Origin: a virus
Lineage: Duplodnaviria > Heunggongvirae > Uroviricota > Caudoviricetes
DNA: 5,934 nt
Virus record (IMG/VR): IMGVR_UViG_2526164609_000027
Strand: one strand, 5' to 3'
The first letter of the stretch is position 1. Every line of letters begins with the position of its first letter. The notes beneath the pieces are model-generated. The model made no database searches. It was not told the origin of the DNA and was given only the letters and a program-made list of their open reading frames with translations. The translations under genes were made by a program, and so were the position numbers. Shown here in pieces: positions 1-5,934 of the stretch.

Positions 1-225
1 AACGCCCATAATGCGTGCAGTTGCCCGGCATCCAACGCCATTCATGGCCATATCAATAATTTTCTGGTGCGTACCGGGTTGAGAAGCGGTGTAAGTGAAC
101 TGCAGTTGCCATGTTTTACGGCAGTGAGAGCAGAGATAGCGCTGATGTCCGGCAGTGCTTTTGCCGTTACGCACCACCCCGTCAGTAGCTGAACAGGAGG
201 GACAGCTGATAGAAACAGAAGCCAC
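1..225 (-). CDS. insA: IS1 InsA (transposition inhibitor / N-terminal transposase part), 3'-truncated by window edge
   Basis: GTG start at 225-223 (minus). Reading frame translates without stops to [75 protein letters not shown], matching InsA as I recall it. The track ORF 42..254 (-) is the overlapping -1 frame, not the real gene. Confidence 0.85.
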
Positions 226-257
226 TGGAGCACCTCAAAAACACCATCATACACTAA

Positions 258-280
258 ATCAGTAAGTTGGCAGCATCACC
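258..280 (-). repeat. IS1 terminal inverted repeat (IRL, about 23 bp)
   Basis: Sequence ggtgatgctgccaacttactgat on the minus strand; this is the outermost IS1 end and marks the insertion junction at 280/281. Confidence 0.8.
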
Positions 281-517
281 AAGGCGAGCTTCATTTAACG
301 CCTTACGCAGTTGCAGAATTTCAGATTCCAGTTCAGCCACCGTGCGGGAACCAGGAGTACCGAGCCCTTTTCTGGCGGCGGTAACCCATTGTCCTAAAGT
401 GCCTTCAGGAAGGGATAATCGGGAAGCGCCTTCACTGATCGAAAGTTGATTTTCAAGAACCGTTCTGACAGCTTCGGCTTTGAACTCTTTAGAGTAACGT
501 TGGTTTTTTCTGCTCAT
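281..517 (-). pseudogene. IS3-family transposase OrfA (HTH + leucine-zipper part), truncated by IS1 insertion
   Basis: Translation MSRKNQRYSKEFKAEAVRTVLENQLSISEGASRLSLPEGTLGQWVTAARKGLGTPGSRTVAELESEILQLRKALNEARL has the HTH-then-heptad architecture of IS3-family OrfA. In the track ORF (254..517) the last 8 residues GDAANLLI and the stop are encoded by the IS1 terminal repeat, so the native ORF is cut at 280/281. Confidence 0.7.
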
Positions 518-571
518 TATTAGCTCCTTCTGATGCCATTCTATTTCAGGAAGGAGTGTCCGTTAAACTCA
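281..571 (-). mobile_element. IS3-family insertion sequence remnant (outer end plus 5' part of orfA), interrupted by IS1
   Basis: orfA-like ORF preceded on the minus strand by a leader beginning TGAGTTTAACGGACAC..., with an AAGGAG RBS 7 nt before the ATG. The TGA-initial terminus is typical of IS3-family IRs; boundary at 571 is inferred, not verified. Confidence 0.5.
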
Positions 572-802
572 GGCTACCTCACTGTTCGCGTTGCTGTTGT
601 GGCCGACGTTTGTGGTGTCAGCCAAAGAGCAATCTATAAATGGATGGATAACGGAAAATTGCCTCGCACAGAATATACCGGCGAAACAAATTACGCTGAA
701 AAAATCGCTCTTGCATCAAACGGATTATTTTCTGCCGATGCAATTTTAACTATTGGCAGGAATAAAACTACTACGAAAAAGCTGATGGGAGTTGATTCAT
801 GA
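533..802 (+). CDS. Cro/CI-type HTH DNA-binding protein (YdaS-like, Cro-like); start uncertain, 5' end possibly disrupted
   Basis: 89-aa ORF containing an HTH-like segment VADVCGVSQRAIYKWMDNGKLP, immediately upstream of and overlapping (ATGA) the YdaT-like gene, as in the Rac ydaS-ydaT arrangement. The ATG at 533 lies inside the predicted IS3-family terminus and has no SD; in-frame alternatives are GTG 599 and ATG 644, neither with a good SD. Confidence 0.5.
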   Translation: MPFYFRKECPLNSGYLTVRVAVVADVCGVSQRAIYKWMDNGKLPRTEYTGETNYAEKIALASNGLFSADAILTIGRNKTTTKKLMGVDS

Positions 803-1224
803 AAATCAAGCATGAACACATCCGCATGGCGATGAATGCCTGGGCGCATCCGGACGGCGAAAAAGTACCGGCTGCGAAAATTACCAAATCGTATTTCGAG
901 CTGGGAATGACGTTCCCGGAACTGTATGACGACAGCCATCCGGAAGCCCTGGCTCGCAATACTCAGAAAATTTTCCGCTGGGTGGAGAAAGACACCCCTG
1001 ATGCGCTTAAAAAAATTCAGGCGTTGTTACCAGCTATCGAAAAAGCAATGCCACCTCTGCTGGTGGCCCGAATGCGCAGCCATAGCTCAGCCTATTTTCG
1101 GGAACTAGTGGAGACGCGGGAACGACTGGTGAGAGACGCTGATGATTTTGTCGCAGTGGCGATCGCTGGTTTCAACCAGATGAATCGTGGTGGCCCTGCA
1201 GGAAATATTGTGGCTGTGCATTGA
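799..1224 (+). CDS. ydaT: YdaT-like protein (CII-like regulator family of Rac-type prophages)
   Basis: 141 aa, begins MKIKHEHI and ends ...GNIVAVH, matching in length and at both termini my recollection of E. coli Rac YdaT (about 140 aa). Start ATG 799 overlaps the upstream stop (ATGA); GGGAG lies 8-12 nt upstream. Confidence 0.8.
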   Translation: MKIKHEHIRMAMNAWAHPDGEKVPAAKITKSYFELGMTFPELYDDSHPEALARNTQKIFRWVEKDTPDALKKIQALLPAIEKAMPPLLVARMRSHSSAYFRELVETRERLVRDADDFVAVAIAGFNQMNRGGPAGNIVAVH

Positions 1225-1295
1225 CTCGCAATATTCATACCGGATCACTTCCGGCAATTTGTGAGTAAAAAGATTCGGTATCAAAAGAGGTGAGT

Positions 1296-2366
1296 ATGGC
1301 TAACGCCTGGCTCAGATTATGGCATGACATGCCAAATGACCCTAAGTGGCGAACAATTGCCAGGGTGTCAGGGCAGCCAATTGCAACAGTGATGGCAGTG
1401 TATATCCACCTCCTGGTGAGCGCGTCACGAAATGTCACGCGAGGTCACATTGATGTCACGACAGAAGATTTGGCAAGTGCGCTCGACGTGACAGAAGAGG
1501 TAATTGATTCAATTTTGCAGACGATGCAGGGGCGGGTACTTGATGGTGATTTAATCACTGGATGGGAAAAACGCCAGGTGCTGAAAGAGGACAACGGCAA
1601 TATTCCGCAAACCGCAAAATCTCCTGCAGAGCGCAAGAGGGCGCAGCGAGAGAGGGAAAGAAAGCGGGAACAAAATGGCGATTGTCACGGCGCGTCACGA
1701 TATGTCACGCACATGTCACGACGAGTCACGACAGATAAAGATACAGATAAAGATACAGATCAAGAAGATCAAAACACTATGGTCCATGGCGTAAAAAACG
1801 CCACGAACCAGGCAGGGGATGTTCAGACCGTCAATCCTGGTCAGCCAGCAGGCACGACACCGGAAGCCGATTCAGCGTATGCGCTGAAAGCCGATTCGGG
1901 CGCTGTGCAGCAGGTGATGACCGCAAGTCCGGAGCAATCACACCAACTGCAGCAGCCTGAAGCCGATTCCGCCATTCAGCGGGAAGCCGATCGGGTAGTC
2001 CCGGAAAACACCGGGCAGTCTGTGGGACGAGTGGATTATCCGGATGTGTTCGAACAGGTCTGGCGGGAGTACCCGTTGCGTGCCGGGGCAAACCCGAAGA
2101 AATCCGCTTTCAGTGCCTGGAAGGCCAGATTACGCGAGGGGGTGCCACCAGAGGCCATGCTGGATGGCGTGAGGCGTTACGCAAGATACCTGGCGGCTAC
2201 CGGGAAAACGGGAACGGAATTTGTTCAGCGAGCGACGACGTTTTTTGGACCGGACCGGAATTTTGAGAACCCCTGGTTGCTCCCGGTAAGCGGCACGAAC
2301 AACCAGCGTTGTGTGAATCATATTTCTGAACCGGATAGCGAAATTCCGCCGGGCTTCAGGGGGTAA
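1296..2366 (+). CDS. Phage replication initiation protein with DnaT-like (primosomal protein I-like) C-terminal domain
   Basis: Long ORF directly after the cro/cII-like pair. Likely start is ATG 1296 (MANAWLRLWHDMPNDPKWRTIARVSG...) with AAGAGG SD at 1284-1289; the track's GTG 1290 abuts the SD. The C-terminus ...NHISEPDSEIPPGFRG closely resembles the C-terminal tail of E. coli DnaT as I recall it (...SEPDSQIPPGFRG). An acidic low-complexity linker (DKDTDKDTDQEDQ) sits mid-protein. Confidence 0.85.
   Translation: MANAWLRLWHDMPNDPKWRTIARVSGQPIATVMAVYIHLLVSASRNVTRGHIDVTTEDLASALDVTEEVIDSILQTMQGRVLDGDLITGWEKRQVLKEDNGNIPQTAKSPAERKRAQRERERKREQNGDCHGASRYVTHMSRRVTTDKDTDKDTDQEDQNTMVHGVKNATNQAGDVQTVNPGQPAGTTPEADSAYALKADSGAVQQVMTASPEQSHQLQQPEADSAIQREADRVVPENTGQSVGRVDYPDVFEQVWREYPLRAGANPKKSAFSAWKARLREGVPPEAMLDGVRRYARYLAATGKTGTEFVQRATTFFGPDRNFENPWLLPVSGTNNQRCVNHISEPDSEIPPGFRG
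1421..1460. repeat. Iteron cluster 1: four direct GTCAC(G/A) repeats at 10-11 bp spacing (putative initiator binding sites)
   Basis: GTCACG at 1424, 1434, 1455 and GTCACA at 1444; an inverted copy CGTGAC at 1487-1492. Lies within the N-terminal coding part of the replication gene. Confidence 0.6.
1681..1730. repeat. Iteron cluster 2: five direct GTCACG repeats at 10-11 bp spacing (putative ori core)
   Basis: GTCACG at 1684, 1694, 1704, 1715, 1725. The hexamer falls in all three codon phases, so the repeat is at the DNA level rather than a peptide repeat. The cluster resembles cluster 1 over about 45 bp (both end gtcacgacaga). Confidence 0.65.
1731..1770. repeat. Tandem 12-bp repeat (acagataaagat x2 plus a degenerate third copy) with two GATC sites, directly after iteron cluster 2
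   Basis: acagataaagat at 1731-1742 and 1743-1754, then acagatcaagaagatc; GATC at 1758-1761 and 1767-1770. Encodes the acidic DKDTDKDTDQEDQ linker. Flagged as A-rich by eye, not computed. Confidence 0.55.
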
Positions 2367-2386
2367 GTGTTAATTTCTGGTCATGA

Positions 2387-2402
2387 GGTAATTTTCAGGA
2401 GG
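2387..2402 (+). promoter_or_regulatory. Conserved translation-initiation motif GGTAATTTTCAGGAGG (SD-containing), copy 1
   Basis: Exact 16-mer shared with 2803-2818; AGGAGG ends 4 nt before GTG 2407. Confidence 0.55.
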
Positions 2403-2406
2403 GCTT

Positions 2407-2829
2407 GTGGCAAAAGTTTTTACACAAGAAGAGCGGGAAAAAATTAAAGGGCAGGTTCTTGAACTCGTACGCCAGAGTGGGCGCGAGACGTTACGACAAC
2501 TGGAAGCTAAAACTGGGGCAACAAGATATCTGATGAGCGTTCTGGCCAGAGAGCTGGTTGCCAGTGGCGATGTATACAACTCTGGTTACGGGTTATTCCC
2601 GTCTGAACAGGCGCGTAAGGACTGGCAAAATGCCCGTAAAAAGCTCTCAAGGGCAAAGCTGAAGAAACCATCTGCGGTTGATCCGGACCTTATCTGGTCA
2701 TTACCTGACGGAGAAATACGTCGCTACGACAGTCGCCTAAACATAATCTGTCGCGAGTGCCGGAAGAGCGAAGTTATGCAGCGCATATTGTCGTTTTATC
2801 AGGGTAATTTTCAGGAGGTGATGGCGTGA
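2407..2829 (+). CDS. Hypothetical protein, possibly winged-helix-like DNA-binding N-terminus (function unknown)
   Basis: 140-aa ORF with GTG start 2407 preceded by AGGAGG at 2397-2402. The N-terminal segment LELVRQSGRETLRQLEAKTGATRYLMSVLARELVASGDV looks winged-helix-like by eye; a basic central stretch (RKKLSRAKLKK) follows. No family recognised. Confidence 0.65.
   Translation: MAKVFTQEEREKIKGQVLELVRQSGRETLRQLEAKTGATRYLMSVLARELVASGDVYNSGYGLFPSEQARKDWQNARKKLSRAKLKKPSAVDPDLIWSLPDGEIRRYDSRLNIICRECRKSEVMQRILSFYQGNFQEVMA
2803..2818 (+). promoter_or_regulatory. Conserved translation-initiation motif GGTAATTTTCAGGAGG, copy 2 (inside the 3' end of the upstream gene)
   Basis: Identical 16-mer to 2387-2402; AGGAGG at 2813-2818 is 7 nt upstream of GTG 2826. 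Confidence 0.55.
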
Positions 2830-3131
2830 GGGTGAGAGTCTATATCGCCGGTCCAATGACCGGGTATAAAAATTTCAACCGTGAGGCGTTTCACAATGCG
2901 GAAGAGGAACTGAAACGGGAAGGGCATACCGTCTTAAACCCGGCAGTACTTCCGGACGGGCTGACACAGCCGCAGTACATGGATATCTGCATGGCGATGA
3001 TTCGTTGTGTGGATGCGATTTACATGCTGAAAGGCTGGCAGCGGTCAGCAGGCGCTAAGGCAGAACTGGCGCTGGCGGAGAAACTGGGGCATGCGGTGAT
3101 TTTTCAGGAGACAGCCAGTGTGCAAGACTAA
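2826..3131 (+). CDS. DUF4406-family protein (nucleoside 2-deoxyribosyltransferase-like Rossmann fold)
   Basis: 101-aa ORF with N-terminus VYIAGPMTGY...F and a C-terminal motif GWQRSAGAKAELALAEKLGHAV, recognised by eye as the DUF4406 / NDT-like pattern with a conserved Glu. GTG start 2826 overlaps the upstream stop (GTGA); GTG 2832 is an alternative. Confidence 0.75.
   Translation: MRVRVYIAGPMTGYKNFNREAFHNAEEELKREGHTVLNPAVLPDGLTQPQYMDICMAMIRCVDAIYMLKGWQRSAGAKAELALAEKLGHAVIFQETASVQD
3098..3110 (+). promoter_or_regulatory. Conserved translation-initiation motif GATTTTTCAGGAG, copy 3 (inside the 3' end of the upstream gene)
   Basis: Shares the core TTTTCAGGAG with the two 16-mer copies; AGGAG at 3106-3110 is 7 nt upstream of GTG 3118. 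Confidence 0.5.
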
Positions 3132-3573
3132 TTACCAGGCATTACGTGAACGTTATTCACCAATTCAGGTGCCGGAATGTCCTGTTTGTGGCGATGAAAT
3201 GTCGATACAGCGCATATTTTCCAGAACGCATATTGTGTATGCCTGCACAGGTGAGGGGGATGATGGATATTTTAAAACTGGTCGAACTTTTGCGGATGAG
3301 CATTACCTGAAATCGCGCGTAACCGTCGTTGATGTTAGCGATCCTGACGTACTGGCTTTACTGAAAGAGCTGGAAGTTAAAGACAAACGCATTGCAGAAT
3401 TGACAGATGCGCTTACACAAATGATTAATGCGCACAAAACCACAATTCGTTTTGGTCATGAACGCATAACTGAATGTGGTGGTGATTGCGACTCGCCGGA
3501 AAAGATGATTTCAGAAAATCCGGATATCAGAATGGCAGAGGCTGTTTTGAGAGCAGGAATAAAAACTGAATAA
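3118..3573 (+). CDS. Hypothetical Cys-rich protein (putative zinc ribbon plus coiled-coil segment), function unknown
   Basis: 151-aa ORF with GTG start 3118 overlapping the previous gene by 14 nt. Contains CPVCGDEM...(16 aa)...C and ECGGDC motifs and a heptad-like stretch LALLKELEVKDKRIAELTDALTQMI. Alternative starts GTG 3166 and ATG 3199 lack a good SD. Stop at 3571-3573, 12 bp before the IS66-family end. Confidence 0.6.
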   Translation: MCKTNYQALRERYSPIQVPECPVCGDEMSIQRIFSRTHIVYACTGEGDDGYFKTGRTFADEHYLKSRVTVVDVSDPDVLALLKELEVKDKRIAELTDALTQMINAHKTTIRFGHERITECGGDCDSPEKMISENPDIRMAEAVLRAGIKTE

Positions 3574-3622
3574 TTAAATTTAGCAGTAAGCGTGTAGCAA
3601 GAACCGTATTGACGGGGATGTG

Positions 3623-5161
3623 TTATTCAGTCGGCAGTGCTACGCGCCAGGGGAGCAGTTCGCCGACCCGGTTTATCGGCCAGTCGGCTATGACGTCAAG
3701 TACATAGCGGAGGTAGCTTTCTGGCTCCACTCCGTTCAGTTTGCACGTCCCGATCAGGCTGTACAGCAGCGCTCCCCGCTCTCCTCCATGATCCGAACCG
3801 AAGAACAGGTAGTTTTTGCGGCCCAGACTGACCATCCGCAACGCATTTTCAGCGATGTTATTGTCCGCCTCAGCCCAGCCATCATCTGCATAGTACGTCA
3901 GCGCCGGCCACTGGTTCAGGGCGTATGCGAACGCTTTCGCCAGTTCTGAGTGTCGCGACAGGGTTTTCATCTTTTCACGCAGCCAGCTTTCCAGGGATTT
4001 CAGCAGCGGTTTCGTTTTCAACTGACGTTCGGCAAGGCGCTGCTCCGCCGTCATTCCCCTTATCTCTGCCTCGATGGCGTACAGTTCGCCGATCCGTTTC
4101 AGCGCTTCCTCCGTCAGGGCTGACGGGGTGCGAACGTGCACATCGTGGATTTTACGGCGGGCGTGAGCCCAACAGGCGGCTTCCGTTATCCGGCCATCCC
4201 GGTACAGCTCGTTGAACCCGGCGTATGCATCCGCCTGCAGTACACCACTGAACCCCGCAAGATGGGTCTGCGGATGGATGCCTTTTCTGTCCGGGCTGTA
4301 AGCGAACCACACCGCCGGCGCCAGCGTTGACCCGGCGTTACGGTCGTCACGAACGTAGGTCCATAACCGCCCGGTCTTCGTTTTCTTATTGCCTGGCAAC
4401 AGCACCGGGACAGGCGTGTCATCAGCATGGAGCTTACCGTCAGTCAGCACATAGTCCTGAAGCGCTTCTTCCAGCGGTGACAGTAGCCGGCAGCATGCAT
4501 CCACCCAGCCCGACAGCAGTGAACGACTCAGCTCCACGCCCTGGCGGCCGTACATTTCAGACTGGCGGTACAGCGGGGTGTGCTCTGCATACTTTGAGAT
4601 CAGCACGCGGGCCAGCAGCCCCGGTCCTGCGATACCCCGCTCGATGGGCCGTGAAGGCGCGGGGGCCTGCACGATGGCATCGCACTGAGTACAGGCATGC
4701 TTTTCACGTACAGTCCGGATAACCCGGAAGACGCTGCGCATCAACTCCAGCTGTTCGGCGGCATCCTCACCCGGATAGCTCAGTGAGCCTCCACATTCCG
4801 GGCAGCATGACGCTGCCGGCAGCAGCCGTTTTTCATCGCGGGGGAGTGATTCGGGGAACGGTTTGCGGGTGCGGGTTTGACGCAGCGGGCGCTGCACGGC
4901 CGGGTCGTCAACCCGACCGGTAAGGGTATCACTTTCTTTCTGAAGTGCCTTCAGGTCAGCTTCCATCTGTGCGATACGACGGGAGACTTTTTCGGAGCGG
5001 CTGCCGAAGTTCATCCGGCGCAGCTTATCCAGCTGTGCCTGCAGATGGTCTATTTCGCGTTCACGCTCGTTCAGCTTTTCCAGCAGGGCACGGTTCAGCG
5101 CCTCCTGTTCGGCAAGGAGACGTTTCAGTGCATTGATATCGTCAGGAAGTGAGCTGCTCAT
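3623..5161 (-). CDS. tnpC: IS66-family transposase TnpC (DDE transposase with N-terminal coiled coil and zinc-binding motif)
   Basis: 512-aa ORF. N-terminal coiled-coil-like stretch ([26 protein letters not shown]...), CxxC...CxxC motif (CCPECGG ... CTQC), then a long catalytic region; size and architecture as in IS66 TnpC. Confidence 0.9.
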
Positions 5162-5209
5162 ACCGGGTATATTACCAGGCTCATTCAGCGTCGACCAGGA
5201 TAAAGAGGC

Positions 5210-5557
5210 TTACAACATAGTCAGGGACGTAAGCAGTCTTTTAGGCTGCCGCCAGTCGATACCTTCAAGGAGCATCGCCAGCTGTGCCGGTGTGAGGAAC
5301 ACTTTGCCATCCCGGGCTGACGGCCAGGCGAAGCGGCCGCGCTCCAGCCGTTTGGTCAGCAGACACAGTCCATCGCCGGTAGACCAGAGGAGCTTTACCT
5401 GACTGCCATTACGCCCACGGAAGATAAAAACGTGACCTGACATCGGAGCGTCTTTCAGCGTCGTCTGCACCTTTGCCGCCAGGCCGTTGAAGCCATTTCT
5501 CATATCGGTGATACCGGCAACCAGCCAAATTTTGGTCCCGGAAGGTAACGGGATCAT
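5210..5557 (-). CDS. tnpB: IS66-family accessory protein TnpB (Orf2)
   Basis: 115 aa, MIPLPSGTKIWLVAGITDMRNGFNGLAAKVQ...LAMLLEGIDWRQPK, matching the IS66 Orf2 pattern (e.g. ISEc8 ...IWLVAG.TDMR..FNGL...) as I recall it; ATG overlaps the tnpA stop (ATGA). Confidence 0.9.
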   Translation of the reverse strand: MIPLPSGTKIWLVAGITDMRNGFNGLAAKVQTTLKDAPMSGHVFIFRGRNGSQVKLLWSTGDGLCLLTKRLERGRFAWPSARDGKVFLTPAQLAMLLEGIDWRQPKRLLTSLTML

Positions 5558-5934
5558 CGCTTCAGTTCCTGTATCAGCAGAGTCAGGAGCTTTTCGCTGA
5601 CATTGCCATTAAAGCGGAGCGTCCCGTGCCGGAACGTTACCTCACAGCTGATACTGAGGGTTTCCGGATCCTCTGCGAGCGATTCTGGCTGTTCGGCAGC
5701 TGCATCGAGAGTCACAGGAAGTAGCTGGGGGCTCTCTGAAGAAGGTAATAGCAGCTTTCCCTCGCGCCATTGTTGTCGCCATTTGAACAACAGATTGGCG
5801 TTAATGCCATTTTCAAGAGCAAGTTTTGAGATGGATATCCCGGGTTCACAGGAGGCAGCAACGAGCTGCTGTTTAAATTCGGGAGGATAATTAGGGCAGC
5901 CTTTTCGCCTGCCGGGATTCACATTTTTCTGCAT
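5554..5934 (-). CDS. tnpA: IS66-family accessory protein TnpA (Orf1, HTH); possibly 5'-partial at window edge
   Basis: 126-aa ORF with an HTH-like segment (PEFKQQLVAASCEPGISISKLALENGINANLLFKWRQQW) in first position of the IS66 gene triad. Its ATG is the last three bases of the window, so the true start could lie further out. Confidence 0.8.
   Translation of the reverse strand: MQKNVNPGRRKGCPNYPPEFKQQLVAASCEPGISISKLALENGINANLLFKWRQQWREGKLLLPSSESPQLLPVTLDAAAEQPESLAEDPETLSISCEVTFRHGTLRFNGNVSEKLLTLLIQELKR

Follow-up and report, generated by a model that had tools for sequence, protein, structure and literature searches.

The stretch of DNA analysed here (the window; 5,934 nt) holds a fragment of prophage sequence between insertion sequences, and in it three consecutive small genes follow a replication gene on the same strand. 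The features of the window are as follows.

1–580, minus strand: IS1-like fragment (1–280) inserted into an IS3-family element (orfA remnant 254–517, end near 581); left boundary
581–1224, plus strand: start of the prophage segment, with a cro-like HTH gene in which IS sequence has taken the place of the 5′ end and a YdaT/CII-like gene (799–1224)
1290–2366, plus strand: replication initiator (O-like/DnaD-like) in the same operon (phrog_3729, E = 5e-255)
2387–2402, plus strand: first copy of GGTAATTTTCAGGAGG, a U-rich tract and the Shine-Dalgarno sequence of gene 1, in the 40-nt spacer past the replication gene
2407–2829, plus strand: gene 1 (DUF977/Ren-like), 140 aa, GTG start
2803–2818, plus strand: second copy of GGTAATTTTCAGGAGG, inside the 3′ end of gene 1, encoding GNFQE; Shine-Dalgarno sequence of gene 2
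2826–3131, plus strand: gene 2 (DUF4406), 101 aa, GTG start
3101–3110, plus strand: third copy of TTTTCAGGAG, inside the 3′ end of gene 2, encoding FQE; Shine-Dalgarno sequence of gene 3; mosaic relatives lose homology just past it
3118–3573, plus strand: gene 3 (ead/Ea22-like), 151 aa, GTG start
3586–5934, minus strand: IS66-family element with tnpC (3623–5161), tnpB (5210–5557) and tnpA (5554–5934), identified by Pfam; right boundary

A preliminary description of this DNA had proposed three GTG-initiated reading frames on one strand, overlapping by 4 and 14 nt and each preceded by a common Shine-Dalgarno-containing motif, and both the layout and the motif were confirmed. Read from the sequence, gene 1 starts with the GTG at 2407, with AGGAGG 5 nt before it. 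The GTG of gene 2 at 2826 lies within a GTGA that includes the stop of gene 1, giving the 4-nt overlap, and from the GTG of gene 3 at 3118 it is 14 nt to the end of the gene 2 stop. An in-frame GTG at 2832 is an alternative start for gene 2; it would give a product beginning MRVYIAGPM, as in most homologues, and would leave a 2-nt gap to gene 1 instead of an overlap. The same three coding sequences with the same boundaries were called by PGAP in a 99.9% identical prophage of E. coli FDAARGOS_944 (locus L001, 9108–9530, 9527–9832 and 9819–10274), where the identical genes bear the RefSeq names DUF977, DUF4406 and ead/Ea22-like. The trio is routine mosaic cargo of Rac/lambdoid prophages, annotated in RefSeq. 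As for the motif, exact copies of TTTTCAGGAG occur at 2392, 2808 and 3101, one before each gene, and the first two belong to an exact 16-nt repeat, GGTAATTTTCAGGAGG. With up to one mismatch allowed, four matches were observed (the three exact copies and one with a single mismatch) against 0.47 expected, a number reached in none of 200 shuffles. A scan for promoter-like or terminator-like sites inside the trio gave none above chance, and an Rfam scan of the window found no RNA family.

The surroundings of the trio are those of an interrupted prophage. The window is 99.6–99.8% identical to prophages, and its replication initiator holds two clusters of GTCACG iterons (1424–1462 and 1684–1732). 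In an intact relative, the gene order runs from the integrase through cI-like, cro-like, YdaT, replication, DUF977, DUF4406 and ead genes to a hypothetical gene, hokD, DUF968, RusA, Q, lysis and terminase, so that the placement of the trio in a variable region downstream of the replication genes, as originally suggested, is borne out. Through the IS3-family insertion at 581 the fragment has lost the cI-like repressor and the operator/pR region as well as the first codons of the cro-like gene, all of which are present in the related locus L004; at the other end, the IS66-family insertion lies 12 nt past the stop of gene 3, and 3585 is the last position with homology to the intact prophage. The interval 581–3585 is an IS-cut prophage fragment without the repressor and the pR region, and we interpret it as part of the early-right (pR) operon of a probable Rac/Qin-type lambdoid prophage of E. 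coli/Shigella. The description of the trio as an IS-bounded cassette holds in that IS elements flank the fragment on both sides, but only the right one abuts the genes (at 3586), the left boundary at 581 being 1.8 kb upstream. A composite transposon carrying the trio was considered and rejected, as the flanking IS elements come from three different families; a defence island between IS elements was likewise rejected, as the content is syntenic early-operon DNA of a prophage.

Gene 1 matches Pfam DUF977 (PF06163) over the full length of the profile (residues 1–136 covering positions 1–134 of 134; 105.4 bits against a cutoff of 22.1, E = 3e-30) and also phrog_142 (PHROG 142, "Ren-like exclusion protein"; E = 7e-47); the family is annotated as LygF or YdaW, and the product is basic (pI 9.7). 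Its N-terminal region, for which a winged helix has been reported, is followed by a basic linker and, towards the C-terminus, by the conserved motif NIICRECRKSEVMQRILSFY. The winged helix is taken from the literature, in which HHpred and COMPASS assigned it to the N-terminal region of this family (PMC2686095); a search of PDB sequences with gene 1 gave chance-level matches only. Lambda Ren aligns with gene 1 at the HTH-like N-terminal region and at the C-terminal motif (NLVFKECRQSAAMKRVLAVY in Ren). Like gene 1, both ren, which follows P, and ydaW of the K-12 Rac prophage (LygF, DUF977) come immediately after the replication genes; a 4-nt overlap goes with this shared position. In the window, gene 1 starts 40 nt past the replication-gene stop, and its position directly downstream of the replication genes is the same in the related loci L001–L003. 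Ren differs in being shorter (96 aa against 140 aa), gene 1 having in addition the basic linker and an LPDGEIRRY segment, and overall identity is about 25%. By these alignments and the shared map position, gene 1 is homologous to lambda ren and is its counterpart. The role of lambda Ren is poorly defined and has been linked to sensitivity to Rex exclusion. Ren has been described as "likely involved in DNA replication" and as interacting with Rex (bioRxiv 10.1101/2021.04.19.439022). In an overexpression screen, K-12 ydaW was a blocker of the retron-Sen2 toxin, which we take as a lead only. Gene 1 would then be a basic winged-helix protein that binds DNA and moves together with the replication module; it may modulate replication or the response to abortive-infection systems, in the sense of sensitivity to them.

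Gene 2 is an essentially complete DUF4406 protein (PF14359; residues 4–93 covering profile positions 2–91 of 91; 129 bits against a cutoff of 22, E = 9e-38). In a test for the flavodoxin-like fold, it showed the fold common to deoxyribosyltransferases, Rcl/DNPH1 and MilB, of which it is a minimal, 101-aa member with an N-(deoxy)ribosyltransferase-like fold; MilB is a CMP hydrolase. The motif S74-x-G76-x3-E80 is invariant, E80 being so in 34 + 40 homologues, and E80 occupies the position of the conserved Glu nucleophile after the fourth strand. By HMM alignment, E80 falls on the Glu of the GTAFE motif in the T. brucei deoxyribosyltransferase 2a0k, the sole PDB match found with the DUF4406 profile and a marginal one (E = 1.4), and a PDB sequence search with gene 2 gave only chance-level matches. 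The spacing of the motif matches that of SLGVGYE in Rcl/DNPH1, a 2′-deoxynucleoside 5′-phosphate N-hydrolase. This correspondence is based on the fold, on the HMM alignment to a different deoxyribosyltransferase and on anchoring by hand; a BLASTP comparison of gene 2 with the Rcl motif segment returned nothing. The score against the nucleoside 2-deoxyribosyltransferase family PF05014 (14.5 bits) is below the gathering score of 28.8, and gene 2 is not to be classed among the true members of that family. The deoxyribosyltransferase/Rcl/MilB fold and the invariant S-x-G-x3-E motif instead suggest that it is probably a (deoxy)nucleotide N-glycosidase, an optional stand-alone enzyme in which Glu80, as the presumed nucleophile, would break the N-glycosidic bond in a (deoxy)nucleoside 5′-monophosphate. 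A Pfam scan of ten longer proteins containing DUF4406 revealed no partner domains. A literature search on DUF4406 returned no functional paper, and one on deoxyribosyltransferases in counter-defence yielded a single PF05014 enzyme, proposed for depletion of the dA pool in 2,6-diaminopurine phages, with no application to DUF4406. Two further observations concern this family. Tyr6 is invariant among the close homologues of gene 2 and lies outside the columns conserved at 90% or more in a more divergent set. Some DUF4406 proteins in BFVD are fused to dATP/dGTP diphosphohydrolase-like domains.

Gene 3 matches Pfam Ead_Ea22 (PF13935) over residues 4–105 only (74.1 bits against a cutoff of 27, E = 2e-20). 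It contains six cysteines, and in the alignment of homologues C21, C24, C43 and H62 of its N-domain are near-invariant, from which we consider the N-domain a probable metal-binding (CCCH) domain. Because a Foldseek search of the model against the PDB found no match with E ≤ 0.001, the label "zinc ribbon" refers to this C/C/C/H pattern and to weak matches to Pfam zinc-ribbon families (E = 0.0025–0.1). In the AF2 model, a continuous helix at 76–119 corresponds to a coiled coil (block-mean pLDDT 69 at its start, rising to 96), and the short C-terminal domain is helical. The same architecture of short N-domain, coiled coil and C-terminal domain has been described for lambda Ea22, which shares the Pfam family Ead_Ea22 with P22 Ead, and the C-terminal domain is exchanged as a module among the relatives of gene 3, which carry many different ones. 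In contrast to lambda Ea22, gene 3 has the C-x2-C...C...H signature in its N-domain, a C-terminal domain unrelated to the Ea22 domain solved by NMR, and a location in the early-right operon rather than in the exo-xis region; a PDB sequence search gave chance-level matches only, none of them to any Ea22 chain. By its sequence, then, gene 3 does not appear to carry the Ea22 C-terminal domain expected of an orthologue of lambda Ea22. The architecture and the pro-lysogenic role of Ea22 have been described (PMC10834534, PMC7093339). We envisage gene 3 as one allele of a modular Ead/Ea22-like family: its N-domain probably binds metal, its coiled coil would oligomerise and its C-terminal domain can be exchanged. 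By analogy with Ea22 of lambda and Stx phages, gene 3 would bias the decision between lysis and lysogeny. The products first foreseen for the three genes, namely a possibly winged-helix-like basic protein, a DUF4406 or deoxyribosyltransferase-like protein and a cysteine-containing protein with a coiled coil, agree well with the pI, family match and published winged helix of gene 1, with the family match and fold of gene 2, and with the six cysteines and modelled helix of gene 3.

Do these three genes constitute a functional unit? The preliminary description had read the tight coupling as a sign of a stoichiometric unit, and the proteins could indeed act in one complex or one pathway and so constitute an undescribed system with an accessory, counter-defence or nucleotide-processing role; the 4- and 14-nt overlaps and the common translation-initiation motif speak for this, as does the fact that the trio recurs, more than 99% identical, in 19 E. 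coli genomes and at about 16 IMG/VR loci. However, from O to Q of lambda, 10 consecutive junctions overlap, seven of them by exactly 4 nt, among genes of unrelated functions; because such stop/start overlaps are the norm there, they carry no weight for a complex. Conservation of the trio as a unit across prophages was also not found: among 5,426 complete E. coli genomes, some part of the region 2300–3620 is matched in about 4,240 (mostly, among the matches listed, the end of the replication gene and DUF977), DUF4406 is present in 1,200, the ead allele of gene 3 in 29, and at least 80% of the trio in 19. At 83 loci with the closest DUF4406 alleles, and hence in a biased sample, DUF977 lies upstream at 69 (alleles 41–100% identical) and an unrelated 134-aa HTH protein at 13, while downstream nine gene clusters of at least five kinds (the ead of gene 3, DUF4752, a 187/235-aa family, other Ead types, DUF551 and others) are freely combined with the upstream genes, gene 3 thus being replaced by at least eight other clusters. 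At 79 DUF4406 loci of other species, where neighbours were called with a crude ORF picker, DUF977 is found in none of 56 same-strand upstream neighbours and Ead_Ea22 in one of 45 downstream neighbours, the neighbours including DnaB, lambda P, RusA, DNA methylases, PAPS-reductase and DUF968. A PADLOC search, which does not cover counter-defence genes, gave no meaningful match, only a chance-level one to LmuB (E = 0.034), and NCBIfam gave nothing for the trio. Because the three genes assort independently in unrelated contexts and each belongs to a catalogued prophage family, the reading as a stoichiometric unit fails; the co-occurrence data already largely refute a three-gene complex, to which we give almost no credence. 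A toxin-antitoxin interpretation of the overlapping pair was also rejected, as it has no family support.

A more restricted association, in which genes 1 and 2 alone work together in Escherichia prophages, for instance as a DNA-binding regulator or targeting subunit with a glycosidase, would accord with the frequent precedence of DUF977 over DUF4406 (the 69 loci above) and with their fixed 4-nt overlap. Yet the DUF977-containing region is matched in several times as many genomes as DUF4406, unrelated genes follow DUF977 elsewhere in the examples examined, the alternative HTH gene can precede DUF4406, and other genera lack a DUF977 neighbour altogether at the 56 loci; the conserved gene order of lambdoid phages explains the adjacency, and we regard a dedicated pair as quite improbable. 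It is unlikely, although conceivable, that DUF4406 and DUF977 act singly as uncharacterised counter-defence or nucleotide-pool factors, DUF4406 destroying, as a minimal nucleotide N-glycosidase, one particular (deoxy)nucleotide or an immune signal derived from a nucleotide, and DUF977 neutralising toxins of abortive infection, for example Rex or RcaT, the latter from a retron. Finally, the segment may be an inert, decaying prophage remnant that is not expressed and whose reading frames are intact only through the recency of the IS insertions. The loss of the repressor, pR and the first cro-like codons on the left and of everything downstream of 3586 on the right, together with the lack of any promoter-like site upstream of the trio in a scan of the fragment, favours this possibility; against it, all six reading frames of the fragment are intact and 99.6–99.8% identical to those of intact prophages, and outward transcription from an IS element may occur. 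We hold it to be possible, if somewhat doubtful, and it is compatible with the explanation that we prefer.

That explanation, which we hold with considerable confidence, is that the three genes are independent mosaic cargo modules of the early operon of an IS-cut lambdoid prophage and not a dedicated system. They would be consecutive modules of a hypervariable equivalent of the lambda nin region (ren to Q), which occupies the same map place, between the replication genes and Q, and likewise strings together small genes that overlap, have unrelated functions and are freely exchanged; the gene content differs, NinB to NinI all being absent from the surviving fragment. The reservation voiced at the outset, that the trio might equally be ordinary nin-region cargo, is upheld by the assortment and by the lambda overlaps. 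In the overlaps and the repetition of the U-rich Shine-Dalgarno motif we see the translational coupling that is usual for a long polycistronic phage operon, and both coincide with joints of module exchange between phages. In mosaic relatives, sequence identity ends right after the CAGGAG of the Shine-Dalgarno motif, and many E. coli matches end at positions 505–531 of the query, that is, at the stop of gene 1. What the analysis shows is the identity of the genes, the fold of gene 2, the independent assortment, the mosaic joints and the truncation by IS elements; the biochemical activities and biological roles of all three genes are what we infer on this background.

A minor methodological point follows for phage early operons: the overlaps and the motif do not indicate a protein complex, and stop/start overlaps with a common Shine-Dalgarno motif are no evidence of one; the motif also marks the joints where modules are swapped. 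The cassette as a system does not matter, and the remaining interest is at the level of the single genes. The Ren/DUF977 family is still without a mechanism despite decades of work on lambda. DUF4406, for which no substrate is known, is a phage protein of enzyme-like character, very widespread and very small, in which the Rcl-like catalytic motif is intact; it is found in 22% of complete E. coli genomes, and at 50% identity its family has about 18,000 representatives.

The three genes that follow the replication gene (1290-2366, plus strand) are not a conserved unit. ORF calling confirmed three consecutive reading frames on the same strand with the coordinates and lengths of the preliminary description, and the same three CDS, with identical boundaries, are annotated by NCBI in an E. 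coli FDAARGOS_944 prophage of 99.9% identity, under the names DUF977 family protein, DUF4406 domain-containing protein and ead/Ea22-like family protein.

Genes under study (from ORF calling) and flanking elements
1-280: IS1-like fragment, inside orfA of the IS3-family element
~280-581: IS3-family element (orfA 254-517); the cro-like gene is truncated by the end of this element, near 581
2407-2829, plus strand: gene 1, DUF977/Ren-like, 140 aa
2826-3131, plus strand: gene 2, DUF4406, 101 aa
3118-3573, plus strand: gene 3, ead/Ea22-like, 151 aa
from 3586: IS66-family element (tnpA, tnpB, tnpC), 12 nt past the gene 3 stop

As read in the sequence, AGGAGG stands 5 nt before the GTG start of gene 1 at 2407, the stop of gene 1 and the start of gene 2 at 2826 share GTGA (a 4-nt overlap), and gene 3 opens with the GTG at 3118, 14 nt ahead of where the gene 2 stop ends. 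These starts and overlaps stand, with the caveat that gene 2 may instead begin at an in-frame GTG at 2832, giving MRVYIAGPM as in most homologues. The claim of an SD-containing motif before each gene was borne out: TTTTCAGGAG occurs in three exact copies (2392, 2808 and 3101), one ahead of each start, and with at most one mismatch it was observed four times (three exact copies and one with a single mismatch) versus 0.47 expected, a count reached in 0 of 200 shuffles. The first two copies belong to an exact 16-nt repeat, GGTAATTTTCAGGAGG.

Do the three genes travel together? Among 5,426 complete E. coli genomes, the frequencies were nested: 4,240 matched some part of 2300-3620, 1,200 the DUF4406 gene, 29 this ead allele and 19 at least 80% of the trio. 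Most of the matches listed to 2300-3620 comprised the end of the replication gene and DUF977 only. We also compared 83 loci with a near DUF4406 allele (80 from IMG/VR and three reference loci), in which nine gene clusters occurred downstream, including this ead allele, DUF4752, a 187/235-aa family annotated as Ea22, other Ead types and a DUF551 protein. The upstream neighbour was a DUF977 allele (41-100% identity) in 69 loci and an unrelated 134-aa HTH protein in 13, and upstream and downstream types assorted freely. The 69 loci might speak for a two-gene link between DUF977 and DUF4406 within Escherichia, to which we give very little credence, because conserved gene order accounts for the adjacency, the pairing is lacking in the loci sampled from other genera and many prophages carry DUF977 without DUF4406. 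In the 79 DUF4406 loci sampled from other species (Enterobacterales, Vibrio, Shewanella, Aeromonas, Burkholderiales, Planctomycetota, Chloroflexota and others), DUF977 was found in 0 of 56 same-strand upstream neighbours and Ead_Ea22 in 1 of 45 downstream neighbours. The neighbours there are the usual replication and nin-region repertoire: DnaB, lambda P, RusA, C5 and Dam methylases, PAPS-reductase, DUF968 and exonucleases. In the examples examined elsewhere, DUF977 is followed by an unrelated gene or by the prophage end. A 3-kb contig labelled as a Collinsella sp. MAG (JAIHTM010000290.1) carries E. coli-type DUF977 and DUF4406 (94-95% protein identity); this is probably enterobacterial prophage sequence that was mis-binned or entered as contamination.

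The tight coupling had been taken as a sign of a stoichiometric unit. Between O and Q in lambda, overlaps occur at ten successive gene junctions, seven of them exactly 4 nt long, and the genes so joined have products as unrelated as a recombination mediator, a PAPS-reductase-like protein, a junction endonuclease and a phosphatase; such coupling is therefore the house style of the operon and not an indication of stoichiometry. With the genes occurring separately, their partners exchanged and the same overlaps present in lambda, the three-gene unit does not hold; independent occurrence and membership of each gene in a catalogued family are the very findings that the preliminary description had named as contrary to it. 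In mosaic relatives, identity stops directly 3′ of CAGGAG at the 3′ end of DUF4406, the final DUF4406 codons co-vary with the downstream gene, and many E. coli matches terminate at the gene 1 stop, so that the SD motifs coincide with recombination joints. In an alignment of gene 3 homologues, Ead/Ea22-like proteins with wholly different C-terminal domains often share the tail AGI(K/R)(I/V)KGE (AGIKTE in this gene 3, at 3544-3570), which points to a conserved sequence marking the 3′ boundary, at the next mosaic joint.

The fragment comes from a Rac/Qin-type lambdoid prophage: identity to IMG/VR prophage contigs is 99.8% over 581-3585, and identity to the FDAARGOS_944 prophage is 99.6% over 1771-3585. 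In the FDAARGOS_944 prophage the order is integrase, exonuclease, dicB, cI-like, cro-like, YdaT, replication protein, DUF977, DUF4406, ead, a hypothetical gene, hokD, DUF968, RusA, Q, lysis genes and terminase. The ren-nin region of lambda, between the replication genes and Q, is the counterpart of this stretch. IS elements do lie on both sides, as described, with the IS66-family element at 3586 close to gene 3, but the left boundary lies 1.8 kb upstream of gene 1. Compared with a relative retaining the cI-like/cro-like region, the left insertion has removed the cI-like repressor, the operator/pR region and ~12 first cro-like codons, and the native promoter of the surviving early operon is thus lost. 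A scan of the fragment gave no promoter-like or terminator-like sites above chance, and no Rfam families were found in it. Because the fragment has no such internal signals and is cut on both sides, the trio is the tail of a decapitated polycistronic early operon and not an operon of its own. Within the replication-initiator gene, two clusters of GTCACG iterons (1424-1462 and 1684-1754, with 4 and ~5 copies at a spacing of ~10 nt) are presumably the origin, as in lambda O, and past them a tandem ACAGATAAAGAT x2 encodes DKDTDKDTD. Many loci whose replication proteins otherwise had no tblastn match retain, upstream of DUF977, the 20 C-terminal residues of this protein (codons at 2304-2363) with 90-95% conservation; these residues weakly match the C terminus of the primosomal protein DnaT and may represent either an interaction tail held in common or a further mosaic joint.

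Gene 3 matches Ead/Ea22-like (74 bits versus 27) over residues 4-105 only. In its homologues the first ~85 residues are conserved and the C-terminal domains are swapped, many ending in AGI(K/R)xKGE, and the N-domain (3118-3372) has near-invariant C21, C24, C43 and H62 (C-x2-C...C...H) in an Ead/Ea22-like subfamily. In the AlphaFold model (mean pLDDT 78) the N-domain is small, β-rich and moderately confident, followed by a long helix (76-119) predicted with confidence and by two helices at the C terminus; the model matched no PDB structure, and the solved C-terminal domain of lambda Ea22 gave no sequence match. Ea22 proteins of lambda and Stx phages are tetrameric, with an N-domain, coiled coil and C-terminal domain, and favour lysogeny (PMC10834534, PMC7093339); the abstracts and outline on lambda Ea22 do not mention an N-domain metal site. 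By analogy, gene 3 most likely encodes an oligomeric adaptor whose variable C-terminal domain would contact a host or phage partner.

Gene 1 matches DUF977 (105 bits versus a cutoff of 22), to which a published HHpred/COMPASS analysis assigned a winged-helix fold (PMC2686095), and PHROG 142, 'Ren-like exclusion protein'; its product is basic (pI 9.7). Lambda ren occupies the same slot, after P, and its product is alignable with that of gene 1 in the N-terminal region and has a common C-terminal motif (NIICRECRKSEVMQRILSFY versus NLVFKECRQSAAMKRVLAVY). Ren is described as 'likely involved in DNA replication' and as an interactor of Rex proteins (bioRxiv 10.1101/2021.04.19.439022), and an overexpression screen gave K-12 ydaW as a blocker hit against the retron-Sen2 toxin (bioRxiv 10.1101/2020.06.22.160242). 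Gene 1 would most likely encode a DNA-binding accessory of the replication module that alters sensitivity to abortive-infection systems.

Gene 2 matches DUF4406 (129 bits versus 22) and falls below threshold for the true nucleoside 2-deoxyribosyltransferases (PF05014, 14.5 versus 28.8). Its comparison values were 11.9 for 1t1j, 11.4 for MilB (CMP hydrolase), 9-11.3 for deoxyribosyltransferases, 9.6 for Rcl and 8-10 for TIR domains. S74, G76 and E80 show no variation across 34 close homologues and 40 that are more distant, and the profile alignment places E80 opposite the Glu in the GTAFE motif of T. brucei deoxyribosyltransferase. BLASTP against Rcl gave no match; the sole positive-scoring ungapped register is anchored on SLGVGYE of Rcl (checked against PDB), with spacing equal to the S-x-G-x3-E of gene 2. 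Nucleoside-specific enzymes have Asp at the position of this Ser, and the Ser, read in the light of published work on Rcl, suggests a 5′-phosphorylated substrate. The protein is most likely a stand-alone (deoxy)nucleotide N-glycosidase, in which Glu80 would be the nucleophile. The DUF4406-type family is common in phages of many hosts, with 18,235 representatives at 50% identity (E<=0.001). The BFVD matches to the model of gene 2 include phage DUF4406-like proteins annotated as fusions to dATP/dGTP diphosphohydrolase (MazZ-like) N-terminal domains, which hints at a pathway from dNTP via dNMP to base; in ten other long members of the family, a Pfam scan gave no partner domain.

All three proteins fall into catalogued families and have essentially identical counterparts already in RefSeq, and their arrangement is one of many Rac-like prophage combinations; the trio is therefore already known and ordinary. 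That one or both of the DUF4406 and Ren/DUF977 proteins act singly as counter-defence or nucleotide-pool factors seems to us unlikely. The interest that is left lies in the single-gene biochemistry of DUF4406 and Ren/DUF977.
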